DNA of 64,000 nt, taken from the NCBI GenBank assembly GCA_046861385.1, contig JBHHTW010000004.1:1-64000 (forward strand), read 5' to 3'. The position numbers and the translations under genes are program-made. Every line of letters begins with the position of its first letter. The stretch's first letter is position 1. The notes beneath the pieces are model-generated. The model made no database searches and had not been told where the DNA came from. It saw only the letters and a program-made list of their open reading frames with translations. This stretch comes from Fidelibacterota bacterium. Its GTDB lineage: Bacteria > Fidelibacterota > Marinisomatia > Marinisomatales > TCS55. This document shows, one piece after another, positions 18,841 to 43,287 of this stretch.

Positions 18841-18841
18841 A

Positions 18842-21806: not shown

Positions 21807-21807
21807 A

Positions 21808-22851: not shown

Positions 22852-23037
22852 TCTCTTTCCAATCACGGGAGCAAATGATTCCGTTTCCAGCTTCACCGTA
22901 CCGGCCTCAAACCATATCAACTACCTGTTGACTTAGGTTTTTTGGCTACGAGATGGTCTAATAAATTATGTTAAACTATTTCTTGATCAAATCTATTTGA
23001 TTTCCATCCTCAATTTGACAATGAATGGATCCATTAA

Positions 23038-24331: not shown

Positions 24332-25501
24332 TTAAGTGTGCAATTGTAAACTCTCGTCCAAATATGGATCTTTTAATGGCACTGGGTTTTTTCCTGAAAA
24401 TGTTTTCATAAATACCCAAATCGTGGCAGCAAGTGCTCCTGCAAACATGACAACTTCAATGAGTCCAAAAATAGGCGTTTCCCAATGGGGTGGAAAAATC
24501 ATTAAATACAAATCGACCCACCGACCCACCAGAACCAGCGATGCAGCGACTAACAAACTTTTTTCGTTCCGCTTTGTTTTTCTAAATAATAAAATCGTAA
24601 ACGGAATGAGCCAATTAAGTAAAATATTCACAACCGTCAGCGCACCAAATACACCTGCATGGCGTTTAATATAGTAGACCGTTTCTTCCGGTATATTTGC
24701 GTACCAGATTAGCATATGTTGAGAAAACCATATATAGACCCAAAAGGTCGTGAATCCGAATAAATACCTTGCCAATTCGTGCAGATGGTCTACTTTTGCC
24801 GTACCACCAAACGCATTTTTTCTCTTGAGAATAATAAGAGCGATTATCAAAAAGGCCAATCCACTGGTGAACATTCCGGAAAAATTATACAGCCCGAAAA
24901 TGGTACTGTACCAATGGGGTTCCAGGGACATAATCCAGTCAAAACTGGATGCAACAAACATAATGCCGCCGATGTAAAGCCAAAAAGCCGACCAACCTAT
25001 GGCAGATTTCTTATGAGCCGTATTTCCATCGATATCTATGGCATTGGATTTTGAAATTATTTTTCTCCCCACCACTATCCAAAAAATAAAATACAAAGCC
25101 ATCCTTGCAAAGAATCCAGCAGAATTCAACCAAGCAGATTTTCCGGTTAAAAGTGCATCTGTTTTCATTACATCTGCCTTGGACCAAATATAAATATCAT
25201 TCATACCAAAATACAAAACCGCCATCATGATAAATCCCATAGGCAAAATGGAAAACATGGCTTCGGGGATCCGTCGTATAACAACATCCCATCCGGAATT
25301 GGATACAAAATGAATCGCTACCAGCATCATACCGCAAAACCCAATACCCGTCAGAAAATAAGCTGACAGAAGTAAATTAGACCACGCTCGCACAGGATTA
25401 ATAACTATCCCAATTATAAATGCAGCGACACCCAATGCCATGAAGACCTTTAACCATATTTTTTGACTGGACGTCAATAACATTTTAGTTTGTTCAATCA
25501 T
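24332..25501 (-). CDS. actF: Alternative complex III subunit ActF
   Basis: DWIMSLEPHWYSTIFG and SQHMLIWYANIPEET motifs; about 10 TM helices. Confidence 0.9.
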   Translation of the reverse strand: MIEQTKMLLTSSQKIWLKVFMALGVAAFIIGIVINPVRAWSNLLLSAYFLTGIGFCGMMLVAIHFVSNSGWDVVIRRIPEAMFSILPMGFIMMAVLYFGMNDIYIWSKADVMKTDALLTGKSAWLNSAGFFARMALYFIFWIVVGRKIISKSNAIDIDGNTAHKKSAIGWSAFWLYIGGIMFVASSFDWIMSLEPHWYSTIFGLYNFSGMFTSGLAFLIIALIILKRKNAFGGTAKVDHLHELARYLFGFTTFWVYIWFSQHMLIWYANIPEETVYYIKRHAGVFGALTVVNILLNWLIPFTILLFRKTKRNEKSLLVAASLVLVGRWVDLYLMIFPPHWETPIFGLIEVVMFAGALAATIWVFMKTFSGKNPVPLKDPYLDESLQLHT

Positions 25502-25502
25502 A

Positions 25503-26057
25503 TTAATTCCCCATGGTCCTCAAAAAGTGGATTACCTTCCACCGGTCTTCTCTTATAACTTGCGATCGGTAAGATGCCATATTCCCTCGACCGTTTGAAA
25601 CGATGAAATACAATTGTCCATCTTTCATATTCATCACTTTGTCAGAAAGTAGAGACGGTGGCGGCGGTACACCCCGTTTGGTCACCGGACCATCCCCCAG
25701 ACCTGTCAGTCCATGACAGACCTGACAATAATTTCTATAAACCCATTCACCGCGCATTACATTTTTTTCAGTAGGTTCAACTGGATTGCTCAATACATTA
25801 CCGGCTAATTCTTCTGTCAGATCACCATCAGCATACTCTGGCAAGAATCCTCGAGCGATGGTGCCTTTAACGGGTGGTTGAAGTGTTTTCCCATCGGGGT
25901 AATTCGGATTCTCTGAAAAGGCATCGAATGGAATCGAATGAACCATTTCCGGAACAAATTCTACATTTGTTTCTCTCGGGTCCATGTACAGGCAACGCTG
26001 CAATCCAATGAGCAGCAGAATAACAATGCCCAGCTTCATTATTGATTTAAATTTCAT
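25503..26057 (-). CDS. actE: Alternative complex III monoheme cytochrome c ActE
   Basis: PVKGTIARG, CQVCH and distal Met in GNMASY. Confidence 0.88.
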   Translation of the reverse strand: MKFKSIMKLGIVILLLIGLQRCLYMDPRETNVEFVPEMVHSIPFDAFSENPNYPDGKTLQPPVKGTIARGFLPEYADGDLTEELAGNVLSNPVEPTEKNVMRGEWVYRNYCQVCHGLTGLGDGPVTKRGVPPPPSLLSDKVMNMKDGQLYFIVSNGRGNMASYRSQVIREDRWKVIHFLRTMGN

Positions 26058-26578
26058 CAGTCAGATTCCAATCTCTCATTCCATTCAAAAGCGTGATATT
26101 CCGTGGCTATCTTAACAGCCCTTTCACTGTCGAAGCTTCCAACTCCTTCCGAGAGGACAAGGACAAATCGATCATCTGTTACGTCCGGAGCGAATGTGAC
26201 CGGTTTTCGTCCGGGTAATACACCCGTCAGCCATAATAAGGTAAAAACAGTCCCGAGCCCTGCAAATAGAACGGTCGTTTCAAAAGCAATAGGCAAAAAT
26301 GCCGGCATAGAGTTCCAAGGCTTACCGCCGATATTGATCGGCCAACTTATTGCCGATATCCAATACTGACCCCATAATCCGAAGACCAATCCGATAGCAG
26401 CAAAAATGAAACACACTTTAGATAGGCGGGACGGCTTCAATCCCATGGCTTTATCCAATCCATGGACGGCATAAGGCGTATATGCATCCAAAATTTTATA
26501 ACCTCTATTCATGTATTTTACGGTTGCATCTTTTAAATCAAATTCATTATCAAATGAAACTATAAATACTTTCTTCAT
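26057..26578 (-). CDS. actD: Alternative complex III subunit ActD (DUF3341)
   Basis: YTPYAVHGL, WPINIGGKP, PIAFETTVL and TDDRF motifs. Confidence 0.9.
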   Translation of the reverse strand: MKKVFIVSFDNEFDLKDATVKYMNRGYKILDAYTPYAVHGLDKAMGLKPSRLSKVCFIFAAIGLVFGLWGQYWISAISWPINIGGKPWNSMPAFLPIAFETTVLFAGLGTVFTLLWLTGVLPGRKPVTFAPDVTDDRFVLVLSEGVGSFDSERAVKIATEYHAFEWNERLESD

Positions 26579-27945
26579 CTCCCACCCCCGCTTCGGCCTT
26601 TATAGTGAAGGACATTTTTAACTTCACCAATGGAAATAATGGGTAAATACCTTATGAATAACATGAATAACGTGAAGAACAACCCGAAACTGCCAATGAG
26701 CGTACCGATTTCTACCAATGACGGTGTATACATGGCCCACGCCGACGGCAGATAATCCCGATGCAGGGACGTAACAATAATCACGAATCGTTCAAACCAC
26801 ATACCGATATTGATAAAAATGGATAGAATAAAAACCATTATCATATTGGTGCGGATTTTCTTGAACCAAAAGAATTGCGGTGTAATCAAATTACAGCCAA
26901 CCATAATCCAATAAGCCCAGGAGAAGGGCCCCAACGCCCGGTTCATGAAGACGAATTGTTCATAACCATTCCCGGAATACCATGCGATAAAAAACTCTGT
27001 CGCGTAGGACAATGTTACAATACCACCAGTTACAATAATCACCTTGGTCATATTTTCAATATGCTTTACGGTAATATATTCTTCTAATCGTAATGTTTTC
27101 CGGGCGATTAGTAATAAGGTAAGCACCATGGCAAAACCTGAAAAAACAGCGCCGGCGACAAAATAAGGGGGGAAAGTTGTCGTATGCCATCCAGGGATAG
27201 AAGATGTGGCAAAGTCAAAACTCACAATGGTATGAACCGATACAACCAAAGGCGCTGCCAATCCAGCCAATAAGGCGTAAACAGTTTCATATCGATGCCA
27301 GGTTCTGAAAGAACCGGACCACCCAAAACTCATTAGTCCGAAAATCCATTTTTTCATTTTGTTTTTCGCTCTGTCGCGAACTGTCGCCAAATCAGGAATC
27401 ATGCCAATGTACCAAAAAACAGCCGAAATAATTAAGTATGTGCTGATGGCAAAAACATCCCAAACCAGTGGTGAACGAAAATTAACCCACAGAGGACCGC
27501 GAAAATTTGGGTAGGGCATCATCCAGTAAGCCATCCAGGGTCTTCCCATATGAATAATGGGGAACAGGCCAGCGCAAATGACAGCAAAAATGGTCATCGC
27601 TTCGGCAGATCGATTAATGGACGTCCGCCATTTTTGTCTGAATAAAAATAGAATAGCTGAAATCAGGGTACCGGCGTGACCAATTCCTACCCAGAATACA
27701 AAATTGGTAATATCAAAAGCCCAACCAACGGTTTTGTTCAGTCCCCATGTTCCGATACCTGTCATAATCTGGTAGGTGACGGACACGATACCAAGAGACA
27801 ATGCACTTGCGGCCAGTAGAAAACCAAACCACCATAATCCGGTTGGTTTTCGCTCCATGATTTCGACAACATCATTGGTGACATTTTTTAAATTTTTATT
27901 GCCATGAATCAGTGGTTCTCTAATCGATTTCACCTGACTAGCCAT
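26575..27945 (-). CDS. actC: Alternative complex III quinol-oxidising subunit ActC (NrfD family)
   Basis: FVFWVGIGHAGTLISA, INRSAEAMT, HMGRPW and GMWFERF motifs; alternative start 27966. Confidence 0.92.
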   Translation of the reverse strand: MASQVKSIREPLIHGNKNLKNVTNDVVEIMERKPTGLWWFGFLLAASALSLGIVSVTYQIMTGIGTWGLNKTVGWAFDITNFVFWVGIGHAGTLISAILFLFRQKWRTSINRSAEAMTIFAVICAGLFPIIHMGRPWMAYWMMPYPNFRGPLWVNFRSPLVWDVFAISTYLIISAVFWYIGMIPDLATVRDRAKNKMKKWIFGLMSFGWSGSFRTWHRYETVYALLAGLAAPLVVSVHTIVSFDFATSSIPGWHTTTFPPYFVAGAVFSGFAMVLTLLLIARKTLRLEEYITVKHIENMTKVIIVTGGIVTLSYATEFFIAWYSGNGYEQFVFMNRALGPFSWAYWIMVGCNLITPQFFWFKKIRTNMIMVFILSIFINIGMWFERFVIIVTSLHRDYLPSAWAMYTPSLVEIGTLIGSFGLFFTLFMLFIRYLPIISIGEVKNVLHYKGRSGGGR

Positions 27946-30892
27946 GATGGTTTCCCCCTGTTTCATCTTTCCGGTTTCTCACCATGGTTAAATAGCCCAC
28001 AGTCGGTTTTATGTTCAGGTCTTCCAGCACATGATAATGGCGCGGGTCTTGAACTTTTTTTACGATTTCACTCTCCGGATCATTTAAGTCGCCAAAAATA
28101 ATGGCATCTGCCGGACAGGATTGTTGACAGGCCAGTTTAATATCACCGTCAGTAAGCTTGACACCCCTTTGTTTTGCTTCCATTTTGGCTTCCTGAATCC
28201 GCTGAATACACAAGGAACATTTTTCCATTACACCCCTGGAGCGTACAGTCACGTCGGGATTCAAAACCATATTTTCAAGCTGATCATCATGTGCATAATC
28301 AAACCAATTGAATCGACGAACTTTGTAGGGACAGTTATTGGCACAAAACCGAGTGCCGACACATCTATTATAAATCTGCTGGTTGAGTCCTTCAGAACTA
28401 TGGACTGTCGCCAAGACCGGGCAAACAGGTTCGCATGGAGAATTATCACAATGATGACAAAGCATGGGCTGAAATGCCACATCCACGTCGTCCCCTTCAC
28501 CGGAATAATAACGATCAATCCGCATCCATGCCATGTCCCGCCGACGAAGCACTTCATCTTTACCAACCACTGGCACATTATTTTCAACCTGGCAGCTAAT
28601 GACACAGGCCGAGCAACCTGTGCAGGCGCTTAAATCAATCGCCATAGCCCAGTGGTGTTTCTTGTATGGATGGTCTTCTTTCCAAAGATTTACTACTTGG
28701 TGTCCGTGGTGTCTTCCAGACGTTGGGTCTTTTTTATATTCATTAAAGGTTGTTTCCTGTATAAAGGGTCGCACTTCCATTGAGGCAGGTTTAATATGTT
28801 CCGGATTGGATAATGTATTATAAGTTTGCGTCAATGCAAGACCGGCTGTTCTATCTGTTTTTTCAATACTGACAGCTACACCGGAAAATGTCAGGTTCTG
28901 TTCATTTCGGCTCAATAAATGGTTAATGCGTTCTCCGACCCTTTCTCCTTCGGACAAAGTGGCTTTCTTCTGAATCCATTCGGGACCTAAATTTTTAAAC
29001 CGCTCCGTCCCTTTTCGACCATATCCCAAGGATACAGCCAGAATATCCTTATGCTGTCCTTCCTGAATGTAAACGGGTAATTCCACTGATTGGCCGCTGG
29101 AGATCAATTTTATAACATCACCCTGTTTCAGACCCAAATCTTCTGCCTTATGGGGCGACATGCAAACAGCATTGTCCCAAGTCAGTTTTGTCATGGGATC
29201 AGGCAATTCCTGGAGCCATGGATTTTCTGAATGACGACCATCCATCATTTGCAAAGACGAGTAAGCAACCAGTGACAGCCCATCCTCTATGTTGGATGTT
29301 GGAAGGATGCCTTTATTAAATTGCGCTGTTTTTCCTTCAATTGGTTTTACTCTGACAAATCCATCGTGTACCAGTATATCCCACCATCGGTTGAAAGACT
29401 GGCCACCTTTTTTCCGCTTATTATAAATCTTTTTCCAATAGTTCCGGACCAGATTCCGTTCATCATCTTTGTTACCGGTCCATTGGGCAAGGGATTTCCG
29501 GAAAGTCCGAGTGTCACCCAATCCTTGAATGGCTGGCTGCGTCATGGATAAAACACCTGACATAAATTCATCATCTGACCATGATTCCAGGTAATGAGGT
29601 GACGGACATTGCACCTGACAAATATCACTTGTTTCATTATCTTTCCCGGAAAAACTGACAGTCAGCGGTACTGATTTTAACAGGTCACGGAACCTATCAC
29701 CTTCCGGCAAATCATAAACAGGATTGACGCCATGAATAAATACTGCGCCAACTTCTCCTGCTTCCATATCTTTTAACAACTTGACTACATTGGAGTCATT
29801 TCCTGATTTTTGAAAACTGGGTGTATTTAATAATACTGTTTTGCCGATATTGCCCAGTGTATGATTAATCCGGTTCACAAGGACCTGGACAGCCGTATCA
29901 TTGAGACCGGAAATCACTAAACTTTTGCCATGATACAGTTTCAAATCATTTGCTATTTTCCCCGCCAGACCATCATTACCACTATGGTTAAGTGCGTGTT
30001 CGATATCTTTGACCAATTTAAGAATTTCTGCTGGTGTCTTTACGTGGCGCTCATCGGCTTTTGCACCGGTTATGGACATCCGTGATTCGACCTGAATATG
30101 TTTTGAAATGTGTTTCGAATCCAAATTTCTATTTTGCCTATATCCCTTCGTAAACTGTACAGGAGAAAGCCAAGTGCCCAGAAAATCAGCATCCAAACTG
30201 ACTATCATATCTGCTTTATCGAATTTATACTGGGGTAAAATACGTTTTCCATAATTCATTTGATGGGCATCTAATATAGCGGAGTAGGAAATAGGGTCGT
30301 ATATTACATGAATCGTATTGGGATATTTTTTTAGGAATTTTTTTATATAAAATTTTGTAGATGGACTGGTGACAGTTTCTGTCAGTAATACAATTTGTTT
30401 TCCCGCGTTACGGGTTTTTCTTAACCCGATCGCAACAAATTTATCCAAGGAATTCCAATCTGTCTTTTCTCCACCCACAATGGGATGGAACAACCGTTTT
30501 GAATCATATAATTCAATAACACTGGCCTGGCAGACAGGACATAATCCGCCTTGTGTTTGGGGATGATCAGGATTTCCTTCTAATTTTATCGGTCTTCCGT
30601 CACGATTTTTAACCAGAACCGCACAGCCAGAGCCGCAAGCATGGCTCGTTGATGCATACCAATACGCCTTCCCGGGAATAACTTCCTCCGGTTGGACTAA
30701 AAAGGGTATGGCTTTTTTCACAGGTGTTTTAGAACAGGCAACCATGAAGGTCGCTAATGAAAACCCAGCAGTTTTCAGAAAATCACGTCGGTTCCATTCC
30801 ATTGAAGTAGTTTCTAAATCAGCTGGACCCGCAAGACTTTCAACTGATTCTCCAACTTCTTTTGTCATCCAATATTTTTTTTCTTTAGACAT
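27938..30892 (-). CDS. actB: Alternative complex III subunit ActB (Tat; molybdopterin-oxidoreductase-like plus Fe-S domain)
   Basis: NRRDFLK Tat motif; NPWLQELPDP; CTGCSACVISC, CHHCDNSPCEPVC, CVGTRFCANNC and RGVMEKC. Confidence 0.92.
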   Translation of the reverse strand: MSKEKKYWMTKEVGESVESLAGPADLETTSMEWNRRDFLKTAGFSLATFMVACSKTPVKKAIPFLVQPEEVIPGKAYWYASTSHACGSGCAVLVKNRDGRPIKLEGNPDHPQTQGGLCPVCQASVIELYDSKRLFHPIVGGEKTDWNSLDKFVAIGLRKTRNAGKQIVLLTETVTSPSTKFYIKKFLKKYPNTIHVIYDPISYSAILDAHQMNYGKRILPQYKFDKADMIVSLDADFLGTWLSPVQFTKGYRQNRNLDSKHISKHIQVESRMSITGAKADERHVKTPAEILKLVKDIEHALNHSGNDGLAGKIANDLKLYHGKSLVISGLNDTAVQVLVNRINHTLGNIGKTVLLNTPSFQKSGNDSNVVKLLKDMEAGEVGAVFIHGVNPVYDLPEGDRFRDLLKSVPLTVSFSGKDNETSDICQVQCPSPHYLESWSDDEFMSGVLSMTQPAIQGLGDTRTFRKSLAQWTGNKDDERNLVRNYWKKIYNKRKKGGQSFNRWWDILVHDGFVRVKPIEGKTAQFNKGILPTSNIEDGLSLVAYSSLQMMDGRHSENPWLQELPDPMTKLTWDNAVCMSPHKAEDLGLKQGDVIKLISSGQSVELPVYIQEGQHKDILAVSLGYGRKGTERFKNLGPEWIQKKATLSEGERVGERINHLLSRNEQNLTFSGVAVSIEKTDRTAGLALTQTYNTLSNPEHIKPASMEVRPFIQETTFNEYKKDPTSGRHHGHQVVNLWKEDHPYKKHHWAMAIDLSACTGCSACVISCQVENNVPVVGKDEVLRRRDMAWMRIDRYYSGEGDDVDVAFQPMLCHHCDNSPCEPVCPVLATVHSSEGLNQQIYNRCVGTRFCANNCPYKVRRFNWFDYAHDDQLENMVLNPDVTVRSRGVMEKCSLCIQRIQEAKMEAKQRGVKLTDGDIKLACQQSCPADAIIFGDLNDPESEIVKKVQDPRHYHVLEDLNIKPTVGYLTMVRNRKDETGGNHHG

Positions 30893-30901
30893 TCACTAAT
30901 C

Positions 30902-31552
30902 CTAATAATGGCATGTAGCACAATCTAATAAAAGTTGTGTTCTTTCTGTGGCCGCATCGGCGAATTCATGCCCCTTTCGGTGGCAGTCCAAACACCAGCC
31001 CATGGCCAAACTTTCCTGTTGCTTTATCCGCTCCATTGATGCCACATCACCATGACAGCTGGCACAATCCACACCCGCTGTAATATGCGGTTTGTGGCTG
31101 AAGAATACAAAATCAGGCAAATTGTGGACTTTGATCCATTCCACTGCTTTTCCTTCTTTCCCCTCAATGGGTTTCCCCTGGGGGTCATATCCCATCGCCC
31201 CATAAATTTTCACAATCTCTAAAGAGGTTAGGGGTCGGATTTCTCTGCCTTCTTCCTTTGCCTGGTTTTCTTCCAATCGCAGATTATCTCTTGTGGCGGA
31301 GACATACTTATGGCAATTCATACATACATTCGTTGCCGGAATGCCTGCGTGACGACTTTGCCAGGCTCCGTAGTGACAATATTGGCATGATATTTCCATT
31401 TCCCCTGCGTGAAGCCGATGAGAAAAATTAATAGGCTGAACGGGTTCATAATCCTGCTGATTTCCCGGTATATGATAGGTGCTATTGCTGAAGATGATTA
31501 AAACACCTGCGAGAAAAATTAAAATAGTAATCAGTTTAAATTGACTTTTCAT
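30902..31552 (-). CDS. actA: Alternative complex III pentaheme cytochrome c ActA
   Basis: QPINFSHRLH; five CxxCH motifs (CQYCH, CMNCH, CASCH, CLDCH, CATCH); LPDFVFFSH. Confidence 0.92.
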   Translation of the reverse strand: MKSQFKLITILIFLAGVLIIFSNSTYHIPGNQQDYEPVQPINFSHRLHAGEMEISCQYCHYGAWQSRHAGIPATNVCMNCHKYVSATRDNLRLEENQAKEEGREIRPLTSLEIVKIYGAMGYDPQGKPIEGKEGKAVEWIKVHNLPDFVFFSHKPHITAGVDCASCHGDVASMERIKQQESLAMGWCLDCHRKGHEFADAATERTQLLLDCATCHY

Positions 31553-31557
31553 TTATA

Positions 31558-32256
31558 CTATGAATTCAATAATTGTTCTTCCAGCGATATTGCTTTTGGA
31601 AATAAGATATTATTTTCCAAATGAATATGTACATGAATATTTTCTTCTAATTCATTCAAATTGGTGTAAGCAGCCCGATAGGTATTGCAAGCATCTTCAG
31701 GCAAAGTATAACCACTACTTAACAGATTCATCCTTTTCAGAATATCACCGGCATTATCATGTTCCATCTTCATTACAGAAATAGGGCCATTGACAAAAGA
31801 GCTGAAAGCAGCCTGATCAGAAACCATTCTTTTGATGGCGGGAAACAGTATCTGTTCTTCTTTCATCATATGCTGATGAAGTTCAGCTAAAAGACCGTTA
31901 TACAATTTTGCTATTTCAATCGTTTCAGGATGATTTTCCCCATGGACTCGTGCTACTTTATTAATGAATTCGGCAGTAATAGGTCCAAGTTCATAGATGT
32001 ATTTGTGGTGCTGATTATAGATATGTTCAATGAGGGTATCTAAAGCCATAGATTGAAAATCTTCGACTGTTTCCGATTGAACCAAAACAGCATCAATATC
32101 CTTCATCAAATCAGCGATGTTTACACCCTTTTCAGTGCAAGCAGATTCAATCGATTTCTCACCCCCGCAGCAAAAATCTAATCCATATTTTTTGAATACA
32201 TTCGCAGTGCGAATGTTATCAGCAACAATTTGACCGATGGTTTTATTTTCAATCAT
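31558..32256 (-). CDS. ric: Iron-sulfur cluster repair di-iron protein (Ric/YtfE/ScdA)
   Basis: GLDFCCGG, HMMKEEQILFP and HIHLENNILFP motifs. Confidence 0.93.
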   Translation of the reverse strand: MIENKTIGQIVADNIRTANVFKKYGLDFCCGGEKSIESACTEKGVNIADLMKDIDAVLVQSETVEDFQSMALDTLIEHIYNQHHKYIYELGPITAEFINKVARVHGENHPETIEIAKLYNGLLAELHQHMMKEEQILFPAIKRMVSDQAAFSSFVNGPISVMKMEHDNAGDILKRMNLLSSGYTLPEDACNTYRAAYTNLNELEENIHVHIHLENNILFPKAISLEEQLLNS

Positions 32257-32277
32257 TATTTATCCTTTTTTTCTGAA

Positions 32278-33888: not shown

Positions 33889-33917
33889 TTTTATTATTCC
33901 TCATTTAAAAGTTGCAA

Positions 33918-35483
33918 TTATTGGTCAGCAAACGATCCTTTGGGTTCTTCCAAAAATATCCAACAGTAAATAAAACTCAAAAAAGCACCACCAGCGATGA
34001 TGAAAAAGAAAGTCCTGGCATCAACCATCGAATACACTACCAGATAAATCACTGCACCTACATTACCGTATGCACCGGCCATTCCGGCAATTTGTCCTGT
34101 CATTTTTTTATTAATCATGGGAATGACAGCAAATGTCGCTCCCTCTGCCCCTTGAACAAACATGGAGGCTAAAATAGTAATAACAATGGATATAATCAAC
34201 CAGCCGGTTCCATCAAACATAGGTACAACTGTTTGGACACCATCTACCACAGGTCCCCAATTACTAATATTTGCCATACCCAGAAAACCAAGGGCGATTC
34301 CGAGCATATATATGAGCATGGTTTTTTTCCGGTTTTTCATTGTGTCGGACAAAAGACCACCCAGAGGACGTGCAAACAAATTTACAAAAGCAAATGATGA
34401 GGCAATGACACCGGCTAAAGTCGCCGTCATGATGTAATTCCCTTCACTGCCAACTAATTTAGAAAAAGTCATTTCAAAAAACATAGGCAGCATGGAAACA
34501 ACTGCCAACTCTGAACCAAAATTTGCAAAATAAGTACTGTTTAATGCTGCAACACTGGACCAGTGATATTTTTCCTCTTCAGGAACACCTGCCTTTAAAT
34601 ATGGGAGATTGATTTGAAGTGTTTTCATCACATGCCCGATATAGATCAATGCCAGTAAAACGTAAACCATGGTAAGTACATTTGATGATATTAATGGCAG
34701 GCCATTGACGTTTATATTACCAATCCGCCATGCCAAAACACCCATGGCGCCCACGAGGGGAAAAGACCAAGCAAGGTATTGGACTAAATCTCCGTATGAC
34801 GTAACAATCATAGGTTCTGTTTTTTTTGTTTTTGCAATGGGACGATCGTCTGAATGATCTTTTACCAAAAAATAGTACATAAAACCATAGATGAATGAAA
34901 CACCACCGTTAAATGCCAATGCATACCGCCAGGCATCACCGTCAAGCCCCAGATATTCATTGAAGAAATTCACCGCAATCCAAGGCAGCGTCATGGCTGC
35001 AAAAGCAGATCCAAAATTTCCCCATCCGGCGTAAAATCCTTCCGCTCTTCCGATCATCTTCGGCGGGAACCAATTGGCCACCATTTTAATTCCAACGACA
35101 AATCCCGCGCCTATAGTACCCAGCACCAGCCGCGACACAAGCAGTTGGATGAATGTGTTTCCAAACGCAAAAAACATGGCAGGAATCGCCATCACGACCA
35201 TTAGCCCGGAGAATACAATTCGAGGTCCATATCTGTCAATAAGTGCGCCAATAATGATTCGGGCCGGGATCGTTAAAGCAACATTGCTGATAGCCAATAC
35301 TTTTAAATGTTCCCGAGTTAACCAGCTCACATTTTTTAACATCGTTGTTGCCAATGGCGCCATGTTAAACCAAACATAAAAAGTAATAAAAAATGCTATC
35401 CAGGTATAATGGAGAACACGTATCCGTTCTTTACTAAAATCCAGTATTTCAGGTAACTGCCGTTTTGTACTATCGTGAATCAT
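33918..35483 (-). CDS. narK: NarK/NRT2-family nitrate/nitrite transporter (second, divergent type)
   Basis: AEGFYAGWGNFGS, FGSELAVVSMLP and GMAGAYGNVG motifs. Confidence 0.88.
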   Translation of the reverse strand: MIHDSTKRQLPEILDFSKERIRVLHYTWIAFFITFYVWFNMAPLATTMLKNVSWLTREHLKVLAISNVALTIPARIIIGALIDRYGPRIVFSGLMVVMAIPAMFFAFGNTFIQLLVSRLVLGTIGAGFVVGIKMVANWFPPKMIGRAEGFYAGWGNFGSAFAAMTLPWIAVNFFNEYLGLDGDAWRYALAFNGGVSFIYGFMYYFLVKDHSDDRPIAKTKKTEPMIVTSYGDLVQYLAWSFPLVGAMGVLAWRIGNINVNGLPLISSNVLTMVYVLLALIYIGHVMKTLQINLPYLKAGVPEEEKYHWSSVAALNSTYFANFGSELAVVSMLPMFFEMTFSKLVGSEGNYIMTATLAGVIASSFAFVNLFARPLGGLLSDTMKNRKKTMLIYMLGIALGFLGMANISNWGPVVDGVQTVVPMFDGTGWLIISIVITILASMFVQGAEGATFAVIPMINKKMTGQIAGMAGAYGNVGAVIYLVVYSMVDARTFFFIIAGGAFLSFIYCWIFLEEPKGSFADQ

Positions 35484-35507
35484 TGTATCCTCTAATGTTT
35501 AATTAAG

Positions 35508-36221
35508 TTAAATATTAGTATTTGTTCTAATTTTTTTCCGATCCCAATACCATCTAACCACTTGTGTTTTTCGCCATAAATATGGATTGGGGAGTACAAG
35601 GATGTGCACCAGGCGCGTATACGGAAATAAAAGAATGATTGAGAAAGCGCCGATGATATGCAATTTGACCAATAAGGGCATGGATGCGATATAGGATAAA
35701 TCCGGATTAAGCGTTAATACTGACCAGAGATAAGGTGATAGCGATGCTGCAAACCAGCTGGAACCCCAACGATGAAAATATGCAGTCAAAATCCCTGTGA
35801 TCACCTGGAATGCAAGAATACCTAAAACAATCCAATCAGCCTTGGAAGTAACGAATCGTGCTCGCGCATTGGTTTTCCTTCTGGAGATTATATTAATTAG
35901 GCCTACCAATGTCACGAGTCCAAAAATGAACATGGCTATTTCCATAACATATAGTCGGGCAGGAACGCTGTTCCACCAGAGAACTGTTTCAGGGACCAAG
36001 AACCATATAAGATGAGCCGTAAGGACAGAAATGATACCATAATGAAATGGAACCAAACCCCAGAAATGCTGTCTGTTTTCTAAAAATTGCGACGATAAAC
36101 TTGAATAGGTGAACGCCTTTGAACGATAACGCTGAATCGTAACAATAAAAAATGTAAATAATGTCATATACGGATACAACTCAAAGAAAAATGTATCGAG
36201 ATAATTTTGAAAAATATCCAT
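35508..36221 (-). CDS. narI: Respiratory nitrate reductase gamma subunit (cytochrome b)
   Basis: SSQFLE, FHYG, TAH, KLH and PYTRLVH heme-b His ligands. Confidence 0.95.
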   Translation of the reverse strand: MDIFQNYLDTFFFELYPYMTLFTFFIVTIQRYRSKAFTYSSLSSQFLENRQHFWGLVPFHYGIISVLTAHLIWFLVPETVLWWNSVPARLYVMEIAMFIFGLVTLVGLINIISRRKTNARARFVTSKADWIVLGILAFQVITGILTAYFHRWGSSWFAASLSPYLWSVLTLNPDLSYIASMPLLVKLHIIGAFSIILLFPYTRLVHILVLPNPYLWRKTQVVRWYWDRKKIRTNTNI

Positions 36222-36745
36222 TAGGCTTGAACCTCCTCATCATAAGTGTGATGCAGCAGCACATCATTGATAAATTGCATTAAATGTTTGTATGGATTTT
36301 CGGTGTCGCCAAATCCTTCAATAATCTTTTCCGTAGCCGGGATAACGTAGGATTTGATAAATACCTTGCGGTTTTCTTCGTCCAAATGAGGCAACATAGA
36401 TAGAATATGTGTCAGATGGTCCGGCAATTCGGATGTTTCCGGAATTTCGAAGCCCCGAAGCATTTCCCGTACACGAACCATAAACATACCTCGCTCGTAA
36501 TTTTCACCATGCAAATGCCAACCCAAATCCAGACATGTTGTAGGATTCAGATCAAAAGTGTGGGTGAAGTCTTCCTGGAGTTTAGATAGGACGGTTTCTC
36601 TGACATAATCGCTAAATATTTGAAATTCCGATATATCATGATCCCCTGCTGATATCTCTATTTTTTCCAGGTTAATACTCATGTCTGTTTCCGGATAGGA
36701 GATTAAGGGTACCAAGTCGGTGTATATGGATGAATTCATTTTCAT
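36221..36745 (-). CDS. narJ: Nitrate reductase Moco assembly chaperone
   Basis: HTFD, GENYERG, ELPDHL and NPY motifs; TAATG coupling with the narH stop. Confidence 0.9.
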   Translation of the reverse strand: MKMNSSIYTDLVPLISYPETDMSINLEKIEISAGDHDISEFQIFSDYVRETVLSKLQEDFTHTFDLNPTTCLDLGWHLHGENYERGMFMVRVREMLRGFEIPETSELPDHLTHILSMLPHLDEENRKVFIKSYVIPATEKIIEGFGDTENPYKHLMQFINDVLLHHTYDEEVQA

Positions 36746-38235
36746 TACCATCCCCGATCAGGCGCATCCCGGAATCCAAACCCGGCACTTTGTTTATGTT
36801 CAAGCGGATCTTTCATCATTTCGATTGCTTCTTCTCGATGTGCCGCCGGGATGACAAAACGATCTTCGAAAGTACACAAGGATGTGAGTTTATAGATGAC
36901 ATCCGCTTCTTCCGGAGAACAGTCTGCTTCCAACAAAGCTTTTTCAGCGTCCAGAAGATCAATGTCACCAACAGTTAACGCCCGGCGATATGTCCGGACT
37001 GCGGACTGTTTCTTTAGGACATACCGTAAATGACTTTCATTACCGCCACCAAACATTTTGGCCAGATATTTAATGGGAACACGCGCTTTTTCGAAATCAG
37101 GGAAAAATTCGTCGTTGATATTCCTGACCGAGTCCCCGTCCTGGGCAGACATGACCGGCAGCATGGGCGGTACATAGAACAGCATGGGTAATGTACGGTA
37201 TTCAACGTGCGGTGGCAGGGCAATTCCCCAATCCTTAACAAACTTATAGACAGGTGATTCCTGGGCTGCTTTGATAGTAGAATCAGCAATTCCGTTCTTT
37301 TTCGCTTCTCGAATAACTGTTTCGTCAAACGGATTCAAAATCATGTCCCGCTGTGCATCCACCAATTCATTGTCAGGCCGCTTGGCTGTTGCTTCAATCA
37401 TTTCTGCATCATAAAGCAGGACTCCCAGGTACCGAATTCTGCCAACGCAGGAATGGAAGCAAGCCGGAGCTTGTCCCGTCTCAACTCTAGGAAAGCAAAG
37501 AATGCATTTTTCAGATTTACCTGTATTCCAATTATAATATGTTTTTTTGTATGGACAGGCTGAAATGCAGGATCGCCATGCACGACAACGGGATTGATCC
37601 AGCAATACGATTCCGTCTTCTCCCCTTTTATACAAAGCGCCAGAAGGACAGGACGCAACACAGGATGGATTAACACAATGATTACAAATACGTGGGAAAT
37701 AGAACATCATTAGCCGTTCAATGGCAAACATCTGTTCTCTTTGTTCTTCGGATAAACTGTCCAGATTAATGTCATTTTCAGCATAAATCGGAGAGCCGCC
37801 TAAATCGTCATCCCAATTAGGTCCCGCTTCAATATCCATTTCTTCGCCCGTCACCATTGAAATAGGCTTTGCAGTAGGCTGGTCATCCATTTCCGGAGAA
37901 TCAAATAAATCTTTGTATTTATAGGTCCATGGTTCGTAGTAATCATCCAGTGTCGGCATATTGGGATTGTGGAAAATATTCGTGACTGTTTTGGTTTTAC
38001 TCGTAGAACGCAGTTTGAGTTCGCCATTTTTCAATTCCCAGCCGCCCTTATATTTATCTTGATCCTCCCAGCGGGTGGGAAATCCGGTTCCAGGTTTGGT
38101 TTCTACATTATTCCACCACATGTATTCGGTTCCTTTGCGATCAGTCCATATATTTTTACAGGCAATACTGCATGTATGGCAGCCGATACATTTGTCCAGA
38201 TGAAACACCATTGATATTTGACTTCTGATATCCAT
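36745..38235 (-). CDS. narH: Respiratory nitrate reductase beta subunit
   Basis: LDKCIGCHTCSIACK, CNHCVNPSCVASCP and EYRTLPM motifs. Confidence 0.97.
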   Translation of the reverse strand: MDIRSQISMVFHLDKCIGCHTCSIACKNIWTDRKGTEYMWWNNVETKPGTGFPTRWEDQDKYKGGWELKNGELKLRSTSKTKTVTNIFHNPNMPTLDDYYEPWTYKYKDLFDSPEMDDQPTAKPISMVTGEEMDIEAGPNWDDDLGGSPIYAENDINLDSLSEEQREQMFAIERLMMFYFPRICNHCVNPSCVASCPSGALYKRGEDGIVLLDQSRCRAWRSCISACPYKKTYYNWNTGKSEKCILCFPRVETGQAPACFHSCVGRIRYLGVLLYDAEMIEATAKRPDNELVDAQRDMILNPFDETVIREAKKNGIADSTIKAAQESPVYKFVKDWGIALPPHVEYRTLPMLFYVPPMLPVMSAQDGDSVRNINDEFFPDFEKARVPIKYLAKMFGGGNESHLRYVLKKQSAVRTYRRALTVGDIDLLDAEKALLEADCSPEEADVIYKLTSLCTFEDRFVIPAAHREEAIEMMKDPLEHKQSAGFGFRDAPDRGW

Positions 38236-38348
38236 TTTATTTTATCCAATTATTTGCCGCAAAAGATAGAAAAAGCAAGATTAGAGCCTTCCCACCCGCA
38301 ACGGTTTTTATTAAATCATTTCTATTGTGAATTGTATGACTTTCCATA

Positions 38349-41300
38349 TTACCAGTTCAAAATTGGCAGTTTGCGCACCATGATGAAAGTATCCCGGTTT
38401 GCACCCGTGGGACCCCAGTAATTAAAGTGGTAAGAAAATTGTCCATAACCGCCAACCATTAAATTCGGCTTAAGACGCGCTCGGGTCAGACTATTATTCA
38501 TCCCTGCCCGTTTGTTCCCGCGCATGGGTGACTTCGGTACAGACAATGTTCGTTCAGTAGCGTGATAAATAATCACGATCCCGCGGGGAATTCTAACACT
38601 GACATTGGCTCGGGTTACAACGACACCATTATCGTTATAAACCTCTACCCAATCGTTGTCTACGATACCTAATTCTTCTGCATCTTTATCATTAATCCAG
38701 AATGGCTCCACACCCCGGCTTAATGTGGACATACGATGATTATCTCCATAAGTGGAGTGGATATGCCATTTCCCGTGAGGCGTAAGATAGTTAAACGTTT
38801 TTGTCGGGAATTCACTTTCACTCACGGCTAATTCAGAAAACTGCAGAGGCGTTGGTTTTGGTTTATAAGTGGGTAAATTTTCACCAAATTGTATATATCC
38901 GGGATGATCCAGGTAAAAGTGCTGACGCCCCGTAAGCGTCCGCCAAGGAACCAGCCGTTCTACATTATATGTAAATGGAGAATATGCGCGACCATTTTCC
39001 AGAAGACCTGACCACATCGGAGTATTATGTAACCGTTGCGGTTGAGAACATAAATCATCGTAACTCATTCGGACTCCTCGATTCTTCTCCGCCAAATCAG
39101 CCAACACCAAGCCCGTTCGTTTTTCCATATTTTTATAGGAGCGGTAGGCCAATTCTCCGTTGGTTACACTGGCCAACTGAAGAACAATATTGCAGACTTC
39201 CTTTGATTCTTTCAAGGATGGATATGTTTCCCCATCCCAAGTTTCTGTGGGTGTTTCAACTTTCAACCTTTCATATTCGTCTTTGACGTGGTAATGGGTT
39301 CCATGAGCGCCCAATCCATTAGCCGGTACATTGGGACCGTATGAAATATATCGATTGTATAGATTTTGATAATCCCTTTTGACAACCTTCATCCCGGGCA
39401 TTGTTTTTCCAGGGACAGCTTCCACTTCCCCGTTGATCCATTCCTTGATTTCTGTTTGGGCAATTTCTGCAGGTGTATCATGAAGTAAGGGAACCGAAAC
39501 GACGTCTTCTATGGGATCAGGAAAATGTTTCTCGGAGATTTTCGAGAATGTTTCAGCAATCGACTTAAAAATATCCCAGTCACTTTTGGATTCCCATGCA
39601 GGCGGAACTGCTTCGGCTAAAGGATGAATAAAACTATGCATATCCGTCGAGTTTAAATCGGCTTTTTCATACCAGGTTGCAGCCGGCAAAATAATGTCTG
39701 AATAGAGGGCAGATGTATCCATTCGGAAATTCAGGTCCACAACTAAATCCATTTTCCCCTGGGGTACTTTATCATGCCATACTACTTCTTCGGTGGAGCC
39801 TTCTGCAAATCGACTATCCGATACCTGATTCGTATGGGTACCCAGATAATGGTCTAAAAAGAATTCATGCCCTTTGGCGCTTCCGCCGATGGCGTTCCCA
39901 CGCCAAACAAACCAAACTCGGGGCCAATTATCTGAATTGTCGGGATCTTCAATTGAATATTTCATTTCCCGCTTTTTCAATTTTTCAACTACGTAATCAA
40001 TAATATCTTTTTCATCTTTAGCACCGTTGGCACGAGCTTCGGTCGCTAATTCCAACGGGTTGGCTTCAAACTGGGGATAAAAAGGCAACCAGCCATTTCG
40101 TACAGCTTTAATATTTACATCAATTGTATGACCTTTGGCCAGACTATCTTCCGGTTGGTCTCCCGGGACGGTGTGGTAATCGGTAAACGATTTCTCATAC
40201 CGCCATTGGTCCGAATGGACATAATGCCAACTGGGTGTATTTTGAAGACGCGATGGGCCAAACCAGTCTTTTGCCAAAGCGATCGATGCCCAGGATTCAC
40301 CCGGTGCTAATTTTTCCTGCCCGACATAATGCGCCAAGCCGCCGCCGTTTTTCCCGATACATCCGGTAAACATCAGTGCATGAATCGCTGCACGATACAT
40401 AAGATTGGCATGGTACCAATGGTTGATTCCGGCGCCTATAATCACTGTACATTTCCCACCTGTTTTTTCGGCTGTATTCGCCCACTCTCTGGCAAATCGA
40501 ATTAATGTATCCGGAGAAATCCCCGTATACTTTTCCGCCCATGCTGGTGTGTAATTCGAATCGTCTTCGTAAGAATCAGAATATCCGTCCAAACCGCGAC
40601 CGACACCGTATTGTGCCATGAGCAAATCATAGACGGTTGTAACAAGTACTTTTCCATTCTCTGTTTCGATATTTTTCGCCGGCACATTCCGCGTAATTGT
40701 ATCTCCTTCACAGAAGTCATCCAATTCAACGGAAATAATATTATCAGAATCGTTTAAAAATGTAAGCTTTGGTTCAATCTTGGATCCATCCACTGCATCT
40801 TCCAATTTGAGGTTCCATTTCCCTGTATCTTCATTTGCCCATCGATGACCTACAGAACCCAAAGGAACTTTTGTTTTGTTATCCCCTTCATCCCACATAA
40901 GGAATTTCCAGTCACCATTCTCAATATCTTTGTAATTAGCAAGTCTGTTGGCTCGGAGCAATTGTCCTGCTTGATAAGTATCATCCTTTTTTGTCAATTC
41001 AACCAGAAAAGGTGAATCGGTATATTGTTTGGAATAATCCAGAAATGATTTCGACTGCTTTTCGTGATGAAATTCTTTTAGGATAACATGATTAACTGCC
41101 ATCCACCAGGCGCCATCCTGTCCGGCGTTTATAGAAATCCATTCATCAGCATATTTGGATACTTGAGAAAAATCAGGAGAAAAAACAACCATCTTCGTCC
41201 CATTGTGGCGTGCTTCTGCGGCAAAGTGGACGTCGGGTGTTCGGGTCATATTTAGGTTGGCGCCCATAACAGCCAACATCTTGGCATTATACCAATCAGC

Positions 41301-41987
41301 CGATTCCTGAACGTCTGTTTGCTCTCCCCAGGTTTCCGGCGATGCGTTTGGTAAATCACAATACCAGTCATAAAAAGAAAGAGATACACCTCCGATAAGC
41401 TGCATTAGCCGTGCGCCGGATGCATAGCTAATCATAGACATAGCCGGGATGGGAGAAAACCCGGCGATTCGGTCCGGGCCATGTTCTTTGATGGTATGTG
41501 CCATGGAAGCAGCAATAATTTCCCGAACTGTATCCCAATTGGCACGACGAAAACCGCCTTTTCCGCGGGCTCGCTGCCACCGTTTGCGTTTTTCCGGATC
41601 GTTCACCATAGACTGCCACGCCTCCACCGGATCATCAAATTCTGATTTAGCTTCGTTCCATAAATCTAATAGTATACCGCGAATGGTCGGATATTTCACT
41701 CTCAACGGGCTATATAAATACCACGAAAATGAAATACCTCGTTGGCATCCTCTGGGCTCATAAGGTGGAATGCCGTGCTCAAGTTTTGGATAATCTAGTC
41801 CCTGCATTTCCCAAGTGACAATTCCGTCTTTTACATGAATTTGCCACGTGCAGCTTCCGGTGCAATTAACACCATGTGTGCTGCGAATAACCTTATCATA
41901 CTGCCAGCGATTTCGGTAAAATTCTTCCCAGCTTCGGTTTTTGGGTGAAACGTCATCCTGTATCCAGGACAATTTTTTATTACTCAT
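38349..41987 (-). CDS. narG: Respiratory nitrate reductase alpha subunit (cytoplasm-facing)
   Basis: [22 protein letters not shown] and [11 protein letters not shown] motifs; no Tat signal. Confidence 0.97.
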
Positions 41988-42826
41988 TATAATTCTCCTC
42001 TAACCATCGGTTTACGAACAGCCTTTAAACGACCACCCCATGCAAGGTCAAACAAAACCAGAATGAGTGCCAAACCGATAAATCCAAATATCATGAAATT
42101 AAAATTGTGAACATCGCTCACCTTTTCATTCCCCTCAGCTTTATTTTTTAGAAAAGCTACGAGGGGTAAAACTTCATTCTCATCAATAGGATGTTTTTTA
42201 TAAATGGGGGACATGGTTGCAGAAGCTGGATTGGCTAACCACGCTGCCGCAGCTGTTTTGCCACCCAGTCGCCCATAAGCTTGGGTTAAGTCCGGCCCCA
42301 AATGACCGCCGCCGAGAAAGCCCTCCCCTGCGGCCAAATGACAGCTAATACATGAAGGACCGCTGTTTTTTAGCTGGGTTGTTCCCAGAAATAACGCACG
42401 TCCAATTTGATAGTCTTCGTCAGTCAATGGACGGTCTGCAATCGTTGAACCGGCAAACCGGGATTTCTCTTTTTGAGATTCTTCTTTGATAAATTTAAGC
42501 AATGCCCGAGCCATGGATGGATCCATCTTGGCTATTTTTGGCATCACCACACCGCGTGCCTCTTTTAACAATTTTAATGCATAGACATCACCGGAATTAA
42601 TGGCGCTCTGGGGATTAACAATAAATTTTTCTAGCCAATCGCTATTTTTTCTATCCTGCACGTTTTTCAGATCAGGACCTGCTAGCCTTCCTCCACCGAT
42701 TGTATGACAACTAACACAGTTGTTTGCAAAAAATTCTTCTGCATTATTTTGACTGAAAATATTTCCATGAATTAAGATAGTTAAAACAAATAAGTAAATA
42801 TATTTAGGTTGTAATATCTTTTTCAT
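41987..42826 (-). CDS. narC: Membrane-anchored diheme cytochrome c (NarC-like)
   Basis: Signal peptide, CVSCH and CISCH each followed by GPDL, C-terminal TM helix; TAATG overlap with narG. Confidence 0.75.
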
Positions 42827-42831: not shown

Positions 42832-43287
42832 CTACTCTTGGTTTCTACTTTGGTTTGAAATATACTCAAGCTTGGATTGGAGTTCATCGCTAAACATGGT
42901 GACATCTTTTTGTTGGAAAATATTGATGATTTCATTTTTCGCACTTACCCATTCCTTATGAATCGGACAAGGATGATCATCGGAGCAGTAAGGAAATCCC
43001 AACATACATCCGTCCAAAAAACCGTCTCCATCAATAATCCGAACAATGGTATTCAGGGTAACTTTACCTGCATTCTTATTAATTATAAACCCACCATTGA
43101 TTCCTTTATGAGAGATAACTAAATCATGTTTTACAAGTATTTGCAATACTTTACCAAGAAAATGATTGGGGATATTTAATGCACGGGCAATATCTCTTTG
43201 AAAAACAGCGTGATTTTGCGGTTGTGCCGCTAAAAACATGACGGCTTGTATTGCATATTGCGATGATTTCGATAAAAAATTTGTCAT
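42832..43287 (-). CDS. Rrf2-family transcriptional regulator
   Basis: SQYAIQA, FLGKVLQ, GINGG and CMLGFPYCSDDHPCPIH motifs. Confidence 0.92.
   Translation of the reverse strand: MTNFLSKSSQYAIQAVMFLAAQPQNHAVFQRDIARALNIPNHFLGKVLQILVKHDLVISHKGINGGFIINKNAGKVTLNTIVRIIDGDGFLDGCMLGFPYCSDDHPCPIHKEWVSAKNEIINIFQQKDVTMFSDELQSKLEYISNQSRNQE

Follow-up and report, generated by a model that had tools for sequence, protein, structure and literature searches.

The stretch of DNA considered here (the window) comprises 64,000 nucleotides of contig JBHHTW010000004.1 and belongs to a metagenome-assembled genome (MAG) of Marinimicrobia (SAR406), referred to as the source genome. On its minus strand lies an operon in which the genes of a respiratory nitrate reductase (nar) are followed by six genes (act) for an alternative complex III (ACIII). 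Genes were called from a listing of open reading frames (ORFs) and identified by profile searches with Pfam and NCBIfam and by matches to PDB entries. The order is unbroken: Rrf2-narC-narG-narH-narJ-narI-narK-narK-ric-actA-actB-actC-actD-actE-actF, followed by a porin gene and genes for the molybdenum cofactor (Moco). NarG, NarH, NarI and RIC score above the curated NCBIfam cut-offs, and ActD above the cut-off of Pfam PF11821. Judged from the ORF coordinates, the gaps between the Rrf2 gene and narC and between ric and actA are both 5 bp, and most other junctions in the operon overlap or are separated by 1-29 bp. The widest gap within the block is the 113 bp between narG and narH, and actF is separated from the porin gene by 148 bp. 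An earlier note, made from the letters of this DNA alone, had described the genes from narC to actF in the same order, with gaps mostly below 30 bp (5 bp between ric and actA), a porin and Moco genes behind actF, and no terminal oxidase. Each gene it named is present on the minus strand where it had been placed, the ORF coordinates bear out the gaps, and Pfam confirms the porin and the Moco genes. No terminal oxidase was found in the window when 61 of the 73 ORFs of at least 100 amino acids were searched with Pfam, the other 12 being shorter frames that overlap longer ORFs.

The Nitrate Reductase

The catalytic subunit NarG (38349..41987, minus strand like the rest of the operon) reaches 1496 bits against TIGR01580, for which the cut-off is 1084. 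Because its N-terminus carries no Tat motif, it is predicted to face the cytoplasm. The iron-sulfur subunit NarH (36745..38235) scores 655 bits against TIGR01660 (cut-off 524), while the chaperone NarJ (36221..36751) is recognized by PF02613 (34 bits, cut-off 22) and stays below the cut-off of TIGR00684 (48 bits against 59). The dihaem b membrane subunit NarI (35508..36221) reaches 129 bits against TIGR00351 (cut-off 106). The NarI quinol site was inspected, as had been suggested in the earlier note. In an alignment with Escherichia coli NarI (1q16_C) the four haem histidines are retained, and an arginine occupies the position of E. coli Lys86, which we take to mark the quinol site at haem bD. 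The four histidines and this arginine are invariant in 35 of 35 NarI sequences from nar-act loci.

NarC (41987..42826) is predicted to be a periplasmic dihaem class-I cytochrome c held by a C-terminal membrane anchor. It has a signal peptide, two CXXCH motifs (at C37 and C159) and a transmembrane helix at residues 244-262. When 19 homologues are aligned, no variation is seen in the two haem motifs (C37/C40/H41 and C159/C162/H163) or at M95 and M205, and the haems accordingly fit the His/Met class-I type. In a tblastn search NarC matches the c-type cytochrome encoded directly upstream of narG on plasmid pTTJL1801 of Thermus thermophilus JL-18 (31% identity over 78% of the query, E 8e-8). The matching coding sequence is the one immediately upstream of that for the nitrate reductase alpha subunit, and the window protein is therefore a true NarC homologue. 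Matches were found on 13 Thermus plasmids, with 31-32% identity over 78% of the query and E values from 3e-8 to 1e-6. At E values up to 1e-5 as many as 2348 proteins match NarC, and the 120 of these that are listed bear generic cytochrome c names only. It was also observed that the first haem domain of NarC (residues 29-128) resembles residues 56-153 of ActA from Flavobacterium johnsoniae (6btm_A, E 1.6e-7); in that organism a class-I cytochrome domain of this type is fused into ACIII and thus part of the complex itself.

The Alternative Complex III

ActA (30902..31552) is a pentahaem cytochrome c with five CXXCH motifs, an N-terminal transmembrane helix (residues 3-21) and matches to the Cytochrome_C7/CIII models of Pfam. 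ActB (27938..30892) is a fusion of a molybdopterin-like and an iron-sulfur domain (Pfam Molybdop_Fe4S4, Molydop_binding and Fer4); it carries an RRDFLK motif, is predicted to be exported by Tat, and has 6f0k_B (E 8.5e-190) and 6btm_B as its top PDB matches. ActC (26575..27966), the NrfD-like and putatively quinol-binding membrane subunit, matches 6btm_C (E 4e-190) and 6f0k_C (E 2e-180). ActD (26057..26578) scores 163 bits against PF11821, where the cut-off is 25.7. ActE (25503..26057) is a monohaem cytochrome c with one CXXCH motif (6f0k_E, E 1e-22). ActF (24332..25501) is a second NrfD-like membrane subunit; it has no Pfam match, and its best PDB relative is ActF of the Rhodothermus marinus ACIII (6f0k_F, E 2.5e-57; 6btm_F, E 2.7e-43).

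The structures of the ACIII of R. marinus (6F0K) and F. johnsoniae (6BTM) comprise six subunits, encoded in an order identical to that of the act genes of the window, and chains of these two structures are the top PDB matches of ActB, ActC, ActE and ActF. The quinol pocket and the proposed proton path are shared as well. When the residues listed in the accessible text of Sousa et al. (2018; PMC5928083) were read off a pairwise alignment with R. marinus ActC, nine of nine pocket residues (W82, I86, F89, P136, H139, L166, D169, V250 and D253) and 20 of 20 proton-path residues were identical. From its structure, ACIII has been proposed in that text to be a redox-driven proton pump. Unlike the complexes of R. 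marinus and F. johnsoniae, the ACIII of the window is encoded inside a nar operon and has no adjoining oxidase. The menaquinone reductase QrcABCD of sulfate reducers has a related module architecture, and the Qrc models of NCBIfam are the best named matches for ActA and ActB. However, the scores of the window proteins fall far below the cut-offs (82 against 180 for QrcA, 128 against 440 for QrcB and 221 against 400 for QrcC), and QrcABCD has no counterparts of ActD, ActE and ActF.

Distribution of the nar-act Linkage

The linkage was followed in 41 genomes of relatives, in a sample of 401 genomes from the phylum, and in the neighborhoods of the best 80 loci by ActB similarity. Among the relatives ActD falls into two classes, one scoring 195-216 bits (11 genomes) and one scoring 156-167 bits (8 genomes). 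None of the 11 genomes with a high-scoring ActD has a NarH above the cut-off, and all 8 with a low-scoring ActD have one. Seven of these eight have NarH encoded about 10 kb away, with contig and strand shared; the act genes of the remaining one begin at a contig end. The phylum sample contains ActD in 129 genomes and NarH in 37. A low-scoring ActD is found in 26 of the 401, and 23 of the 26 also have NarH, in 16 cases on the same contig at a distance of 7-11 kb and in 7 cases on other contigs of fragmented MAGs. Two genomes (G052 and G063) carry a second ActD that proved to be nar-linked when the loci were inspected. In total, 28 of the 401 genomes have the nar-type ActD, 25 of the 28 have NarH, and adjacency is shown in 18.

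The closest ActB loci come from MAGs labelled Candidatus Marinimicrobia or Neomarinimicrobiota, with 62-85% identity to the window protein. Every locus retrieved with ActB belongs to a MAG. At 38 of the best 80 loci narGHJI is found upstream on the same strand. The other 42 consist of 15 with too little upstream DNA, one without an ActB frame, and 26 in other contexts; the last group is mostly from Elusimicrobiota, and three of its members end just past narK or ric. The nar-linked loci carry about seven phylum labels, namely Fidelibacterota, Acidobacteriota, Planctomycetota, Bdellovibrionota, Myxococcota, Pseudomonadota and, for one MAG, Bacillota. NarC is present in 15 loci that show narC upstream of narG, the window being counted among them. 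In 10 of the 39 nar-linked loci (again with the window included) there is no gene between narI and actA, the gaps being up to about 100 bp and one pair of called frames overlapping. In the others the interval holds narK (16 loci), narK and ric (7), ric alone (1) or ORFs without an assigned identity (5).

Since the arrangement recurs in independent assemblies, the linkage is not the result of chance or misassembly; it is genuine, ancient and found in many lineages. Genomes as small as about 2 Mb retain the module, and its phylogeny cuts across phyla, which implies horizontal transfer. We read the operon of the window as a self-contained module for nitrate respiration that has been spread horizontally.

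A Separate Clade of Alternative Complex III

The ActB of the window is only 34-37% identical to the ActB encoded at the ordinary ACIII loci of nine relatives. Its identity to the nar-linked ActB of other phyla is 44-53%, except at three loci where it is 39-41%. At four of the nine ordinary loci the act genes are followed by COX2-COX1-COX3, and counting all 13 ordinary Marinimicrobia loci, cox genes follow in six. A tree of ActC was built from 82 rows by a quick IQ-TREE run (LG+G4, unrooted; one long-branched row, L088, was flagged). In this tree a branch with an SH-aLRT value of 100 separates the 13 ordinary Marinimicrobia sequences, which make up one side of it, from all nar-linked sequences. 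G063 has both a cox-linked and a nar-linked ACIII, and G052 an ordinary and a nar-linked one, and the copies separate accordingly in the tree. The alignments and the tree thus place the ACIII of the window in a clade that travels with nar and whose ancestry is separate from that of the phylum's ordinary ACIII, some of which are cox-linked.

At one locus of a Planctomycetota MAG (L037:3798-8695) an ACIII of the same super-clade is encoded divergently from a cluster of genes for a cytochrome c, NosZ, NosD and NosF. This is a second N-oxide reductase context for the super-clade.

Oxidase and Other Electron Acceptors

The assembly of the source genome is 2.43 Mb in size and 97.9% complete. Profile searches found one ActD in it, so that the ACIII of the window is the only one the genome encodes. 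The sole COX1 is found on another contig (C89), in the cluster COX1-COX3-COX4-COX2-CtaA-CtaB-SCO1, and about 8 kb upstream of it are genes for a Rieske protein, a split cytochrome b and an eight-haem cytochrome c of 1011 amino acids. Since COX1 has the HPEVY and WAHH motifs and COX2 the CuA motif, the enzyme is by its motifs a real aa3-type cytochrome c oxidase, with a bc-type complex of its own. Two Rrf2 genes that precede the oxidase genes had raised the idea that it might be a nitric oxide (NO) reductase, but the idea was rejected because of the three motifs. Most members of the family to which the window belongs have a b6-type cytochrome b encoded at a distance of 6-30 kb from COX1, with or without ACIII. 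In five of five carriers of the nar-linked ACIII that belong to other phyla, cytochrome b and COX1 are encoded elsewhere in the genome, and four of the five have a single ActD.

As to nitrogen oxides, profile searches of the source genome found no NirK, NirS, NrfA or NosZ propeller, and tblastn with the NosZ from L037 gave no match in it. Among the 25 Marinimicrobia genomes with a nar-type ACIII, the NosZ propeller is found in none (the positive control worked) and NirS in none (for which no positive control responded). NrfA is present in three, and NirK scores above the cut-off in two and weakly in two more. This leaves 18 of the 25 carriers without any of NirK, NirS, NrfA and NosZ, and because of this it is unlikely that ACIII feeds downstream reductases in those 18. 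These genomes look like specialists in the reduction of nitrate to nitrite. NarC is the only cytochrome c acceptor encoded together with the ACIII.

Proposed Electron Path

The earlier note had suggested an ACIII dedicated to nitrate, and had named three findings that would speak against it: a linkage unique to this assembly, an aerobic promoter belonging to the act genes, or an oxidase as partner of the genome's only ACIII. None of them appeared. The linkage recurs in other genomes, and the single ACIII of the source genome, which has no second act locus, is accompanied by an oxidase that lies on another contig beside its own Rieske/cytochrome b genes. A clade distinct from the oxidase-linked ACIII, which the note had proposed to look for, was found with ActC. 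The association with nar instead of an oxidase therefore stands, on the grounds of the sole ACIII, the remote oxidase, the recurrence and the clade; the electron path and the additional coupling site that the note had attached to it are of a more conditional kind. Its other suggestion, that ACIII feeds reductases of nitrogen oxides encoded elsewhere, is disfavored, as none were found in the source genome or in 18 of the 25 carriers.

We tentatively propose, at somewhat less than an even chance, that electrons flow from menaquinol through ACIII, NarC and NarI to NarHG, and that the dedicated ACIII adds a putative pumping site. ActC would take electrons from menaquinol at the periplasmic face of the membrane, and the electrons would then pass the iron-sulfur clusters of ActB and the haems of ActA and ActE to the two His/Met haems of NarC. 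From NarC they would enter the b haems of NarI and cross the membrane to NarH and NarG, where nitrate would be reduced in the cytoplasm. Such a route would retain the two charges per two electrons of the ordinary Nar loop, which come from charge separation across NarI, and if ACIII pumps protons a second coupling site would be gained on top of this. The potentials are about -0.07 V for menaquinone, about +0.2 to +0.3 V for a class-I cytochrome c and about +0.42 V for nitrate/nitrite. The span between menaquinol and nitrate would thus be split into two steps, each sufficient for one coupling event, while direct oxidation at NarI would use one. The second site would draw on the span of about 0.5 V that is mostly wasted when quinol is oxidized directly at NarI. 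A prediction of a complex of NarC (residues 27-243), ActE (residues 24-184) and three haems gave a score of 0.13, compared with a mark of 0.32, which speaks neither for nor against the path; controls were not folded.

Several observations weigh against the proposed path. NarC is the first subunit encoded in all eight inspected Marinimicrobia nar operons that have no dedicated ACIII (8/8), and at least six of these operons have no act genes after narI or narK. Thermus has a NarC as well, and the 24.6 kb retrieved around its nar genes contain no act genes; the available text of PMC7694296 holds that the Thermus protein carries electrons out of Nar and not into it. With its conserved pocket, NarI may be able to oxidize quinol directly, and ACIII would then be dispensable for nitrate reduction. 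In two Marinimicrobia loci (L017:17678-21402 and L018:17794-21520) COX2-COX1-COX3 and another Rrf2 gene follow the nar-ric-act-porin block, and by coordinates the genome G013 has the same layout of nar, act, porin and then cox; the nar-type ACIII of these three could serve an oxidase. The ACIII super-clade also contains sub-clades without nar (Elusimicrobiota, some Planctomycetota and the locus by nosZ). Proton pumping by ACIII is a structural proposal, and the entry of electrons from a high-potential haem c into the b haems of NarI would be locally uphill.

Alternative Explanations

It is possible, but on the whole rather unlikely, that ACIII is a general quinol:cytochrome c oxidoreductase for low-oxygen or anoxic conditions, merely co-regulated with nar by a shared Rrf2/nitrate/NO regulon. 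NarI would then take electrons directly from quinol as in E. coli, and NarC would be an exit branch like that of Thermus. This would agree with the conserved pocket on the periplasmic side of NarI with its invariant arginine at the Lys86 position, and with the occurrence of NarC without ACIII in Marinimicrobia nar operons and in Thermus. Electrons from ACIII would go to multihaem cytochromes, to a nitrite or NO reductase that has escaped recognition, or, when traces of oxygen are present, to the aa3 oxidase. The oxidase is suggested by L017 and L018, where cox genes come straight after nar-act (as they do by coordinates in G013), but a Rieske/cytochrome b complex already stands next to the oxidase in the source genome and in most of the family, and the nar-linked ACIII is accompanied by a separate cox-linked one in G063 and by an ordinary one in G052. 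Other c-type cytochromes are plentiful in the source genome (22- and 17-haem proteins on C11, the cluster on C15 and a pentahaem protein on C58), and one member of the ACIII super-clade is encoded beside cyt c-nosZ-nosD-nosF; however, NirK, NirS, NrfA and NosZ were not found in 18 of the 25 Marinimicrobia carriers. The literature, as represented by the accessible parts of PMC9386147 and PMC9270275, allows an ACIII that is not linked to cox and serves periplasmic acceptors. Yet the abutment of narI and actA in 10 loci and the co-inheritance over about seven phylum labels argue for a functional unit that goes beyond shared regulation.

That the system runs in the direction known from Nitrobacter, at least at times, seems improbable. 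NarGH would oxidize nitrite, and NarI and NarC would pass the electrons on to the pool of cytochrome c, from which the aa3 oxidase or, by ACIII working backwards, menaquinone would receive them. In its layout narC-narGHJI is similar to the Nitrobacter nitrite oxidoreductase (NXR) as described in the available portion of PMC7694296, but NarG scores as an equivalog of respiratory NarG, and RIC and the two NarK proteins suit nitrate respiration. NarC has the invariant methionine ligands of high-potential class-I cytochromes, and cox genes follow the module in L017 and L018. On the other hand, reverse flow to menaquinone would cost energy and has no evident use. The genome is small and looks heterotrophic, with no carbon-fixation gene among the scanned ORFs of the window, the rest of the genome not having been searched.

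A combination of the two directions is more speculative and no less improbable. The nitrate reducers that dominate in oxygen-deficient waters would then possess a reversible nitrate/nitrite:cytochrome c system, made up of NarCGHI and ACIII and in some genomes also of the aa3 oxidase encoded alongside. Supplied with nitrate and reduced quinone, this system may support nitrate respiration through two coupling sites, and with nitrite and trace oxygen, or near equilibrium, it may run backwards like the NXR of Nitrobacter. Both nitrite oxidation and exchange between nitrate and nitrite have been measured in apparently anoxic ocean water, and if the system were reversible, bacteria of the SAR406 type would have a share in these processes there.

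Adjacency without functional meaning, with two gene sets joined once on a mobile island and hitch-hiking together ever since, would fit the horizontal transfer implied by a module phylogeny that crosses phyla and the variable content of the narI-actA interval (nothing, narK, or narK and ric), but is very improbable given that order and strand are kept down to 39-53% ActB identity and over about seven phylum labels, that the spacing is operon-like, that the ACIII forms a distinct clade, and that the module persists in genomes of about 2 Mb.

Relation to Known Systems

The closest known nitrate reductase is NarCGHJI(KT) of Thermus thermophilus, where narC is the first structural gene as it is in the window. 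Both NarC proteins are membrane-anchored periplasmic dihaem cytochromes c, related at the identity given above, and NarG faces the cytoplasm in both systems, in that of the window by prediction. According to the accessible part of PMC7694296, Thermus NarC is required for the maturation of Nar, is bound to NarI and hands electrons outward to the reductases of nitrite and NO; for the reduction of these two it is held to replace complex III. The window differs from Thermus in having an ACIII in the same operon where Thermus has no act genes around nar, and in that no Nir, Nor or Nos was found.

A cluster of the same kind as that of the window has been seen before. In the text available from Suarez et al. 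(2023; PMC10732223), nar is reported upstream of a cluster of six genes in 13 instances from Planctomycetota and KSB1 MAGs. The cluster encodes a pentahaem cytochrome, a molybdopterin/4Fe-4S protein, NrfD, ActD, a 'ccoP' and a 'quinone-binding subunit 2', and its figure legend, as far as it is accessible, also shows an iron-dependent (Rrf2-type) regulator. It is called there a 'novel NrfD-containing complex' and is matched to no described complex, the guess being an NrfAH-like nitrite reductase or some respiratory role. In three MAGs of that study (OFTM isolates; L027, L029 and L050) we find narGHJI upstream of actA-F, with an ActB that is 44-46% identical to that of the window. Unlike in the present work, the cluster is not named as ACIII in the available text, which also contains no phylogeny, no link to NarC and no Marinimicrobia. 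A somewhat different parallel is known from Thermogutta terrifontis, where Elcheninov et al. (2017; PMC5673643) described genes of a bc complex next to narGHI and suggested a role in nitrate respiration. Like in the window, a quinol:cytochrome c oxidoreductase is encoded beside narGHI, but the complex is of the cytochrome bc type, and NarC was not found there (PMC5673643).

In the full-text literature searched, PMC10732223 is the only paper that describes the nar-act linkage. It is not mentioned in the accessible portions of PMC5317091, PMC13608581, PMC9270275, PMC8163782, bioRxiv 197269 and PMC9386147. No paper was found in full text that treats an ACIII-Nar operon by that name or in Marinimicrobia, the subscription papers on ACIII gene context (Refojo et al., 2010-2013) being outside the search. 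The system had been called undescribed in the earlier note. This holds for ACIII-Nar as a named system in the literature searched, but not for the cluster downstream of nar, which, going by the available text of PMC10732223, has been partly glimpsed in that one paper without being recognized as ACIII.

ACIII is usually regarded as a component of aerobic respiration, and textbooks present Nar as the model of a quinol oxidase that works without a complex III. In the part of a survey that is available (PMC10100899), ActB is even said to act exclusively in aerobic respiration. A conserved and mobile nar-ACIII operon, in which a cytochrome c subunit is the obvious link, points to a wiring of nitrate respiration that has not been studied. 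Should ACIII pump, roughly twice as much energy could be conserved for each nitrate. Marinimicrobia have been reported as major contributors of narG transcripts in oxygen-deficient zones of the ocean, and such a wiring could therefore have an effect on the energetics of the initial step in the loss of nitrogen from the sea. The similar clusters in Planctomycetota, Acidobacteriota, Myxococcota and Bdellovibrionota would get a corrected annotation.

Regulators and Accessory Genes

The Rrf2-family regulator (42832..43287, minus strand; PF02082, 84 bits) has a C-x6-C-x5-C motif with the sequence CMLGFPYCSDDHPC, and its gene is probably the first of the operon. An Rrf2 gene is also found upstream of narC in five other loci (L012, L020, L023, L035 and L039). 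On contig C89 of the source genome two tandem Rrf2 genes (L003:8009-9108) lie between the Rieske/cytochrome b genes and those of the aa3 oxidase, and together with the one heading the nar operon they may form a shared redox- or NO-sensing circuit of respiratory loci. In one act-less Marinimicrobia nar operon (L100:1634-3244) two narK genes are followed by genes for an 8-haem cytochrome and an Rrf2 protein. A scan of positions 23900-43600 for promoters and terminators gave counts at the level of shuffled sequence (56 against 52.8 and 19 against 19.3), with a sigma-70 consensus that may not be that of the host. The spacer between the Rrf2 gene and mobA holds AT-rich pairs of inverted repeats only, without a convincing operator.

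Between narI and actA the window encodes two transporters of the NarK family (33918..35483 and 32278..33888, minus strand) and RIC/YtfE (31558..32256, minus strand), a di-iron protein for the repair of iron-sulfur clusters that scores 254 bits against TIGR03652 (cut-off 205). Both transporters are above the cut-off of PF07690 (MFS_1); with TIGR00886 they score 280 and 256 bits, both below the cut-off of 312, and a score of 288 bits with NF011608 is also below its cut-off. The gene downstream of actF encodes an outer-membrane porin of the Alginate_exp family (23038..24183, minus strand; PF13372, 86 bits), and a porin is kept at this place in the Marinimicrobia loci L010, L011, L013, L016, L017 and L018. 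A porin gene also follows narI in an act-less Marinimicrobia nar operon (L102). It may be that the porin is a channel for nitrate and nitrite that belongs to nar instead of ACIII.

The Moco genes (17088..22920, minus strand) were identified by Pfam as those for MoaA, MoaC/MoCF, a TauE-family permease, MoeA, a ThiF/MoeB-like protein and MoaE. On the other side, divergent from the operon, are a PAS-GGDEF gene and mobA; the latter (43522..44091, plus strand; PF12804, 68.5 bits) encodes a MobA-like nucleotidyltransferase for the maturation of the guanine dinucleotide cofactor.

Other Cytochrome Loci of the Source Genome

Three further contigs carry genes for multihaem proteins. On C58 (17916-22418; L006:1917-6419) a beta-propeller protein with a sub-threshold match to Cytochrom_D1 is encoded together with an FG-GAP protein bearing a T9SS tail and a pentahaem cytochrome whose resemblance to cytochrome c552 (5ze8_A) is weak. 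The pentahaem protein was rejected as a nitrite reductase, its matches being sub-threshold only (PF02335, 18.8 bits; 5ze8_A, E 6e-7 over about 90 residues). A second NrfD-type complex is found on C15 (73800-84150; L004:5811-16148), with an EB_dh-like haem protein, 4-haem and 5-haem cytochromes, a molybdopterin oxidoreductase of 806 amino acids, a 4Fe-4S protein and an NrfD subunit, followed by 14-haem and 4-haem cytochromes. On C11 (1-3406; L005) there are multihaem cytochromes with 22 and 17 CXXCH motifs, the first of which runs off the contig end. They adjoin genes for NAD-binding and pyridine-nucleotide oxidoreductase proteins, and may take part in extracellular electron transfer.

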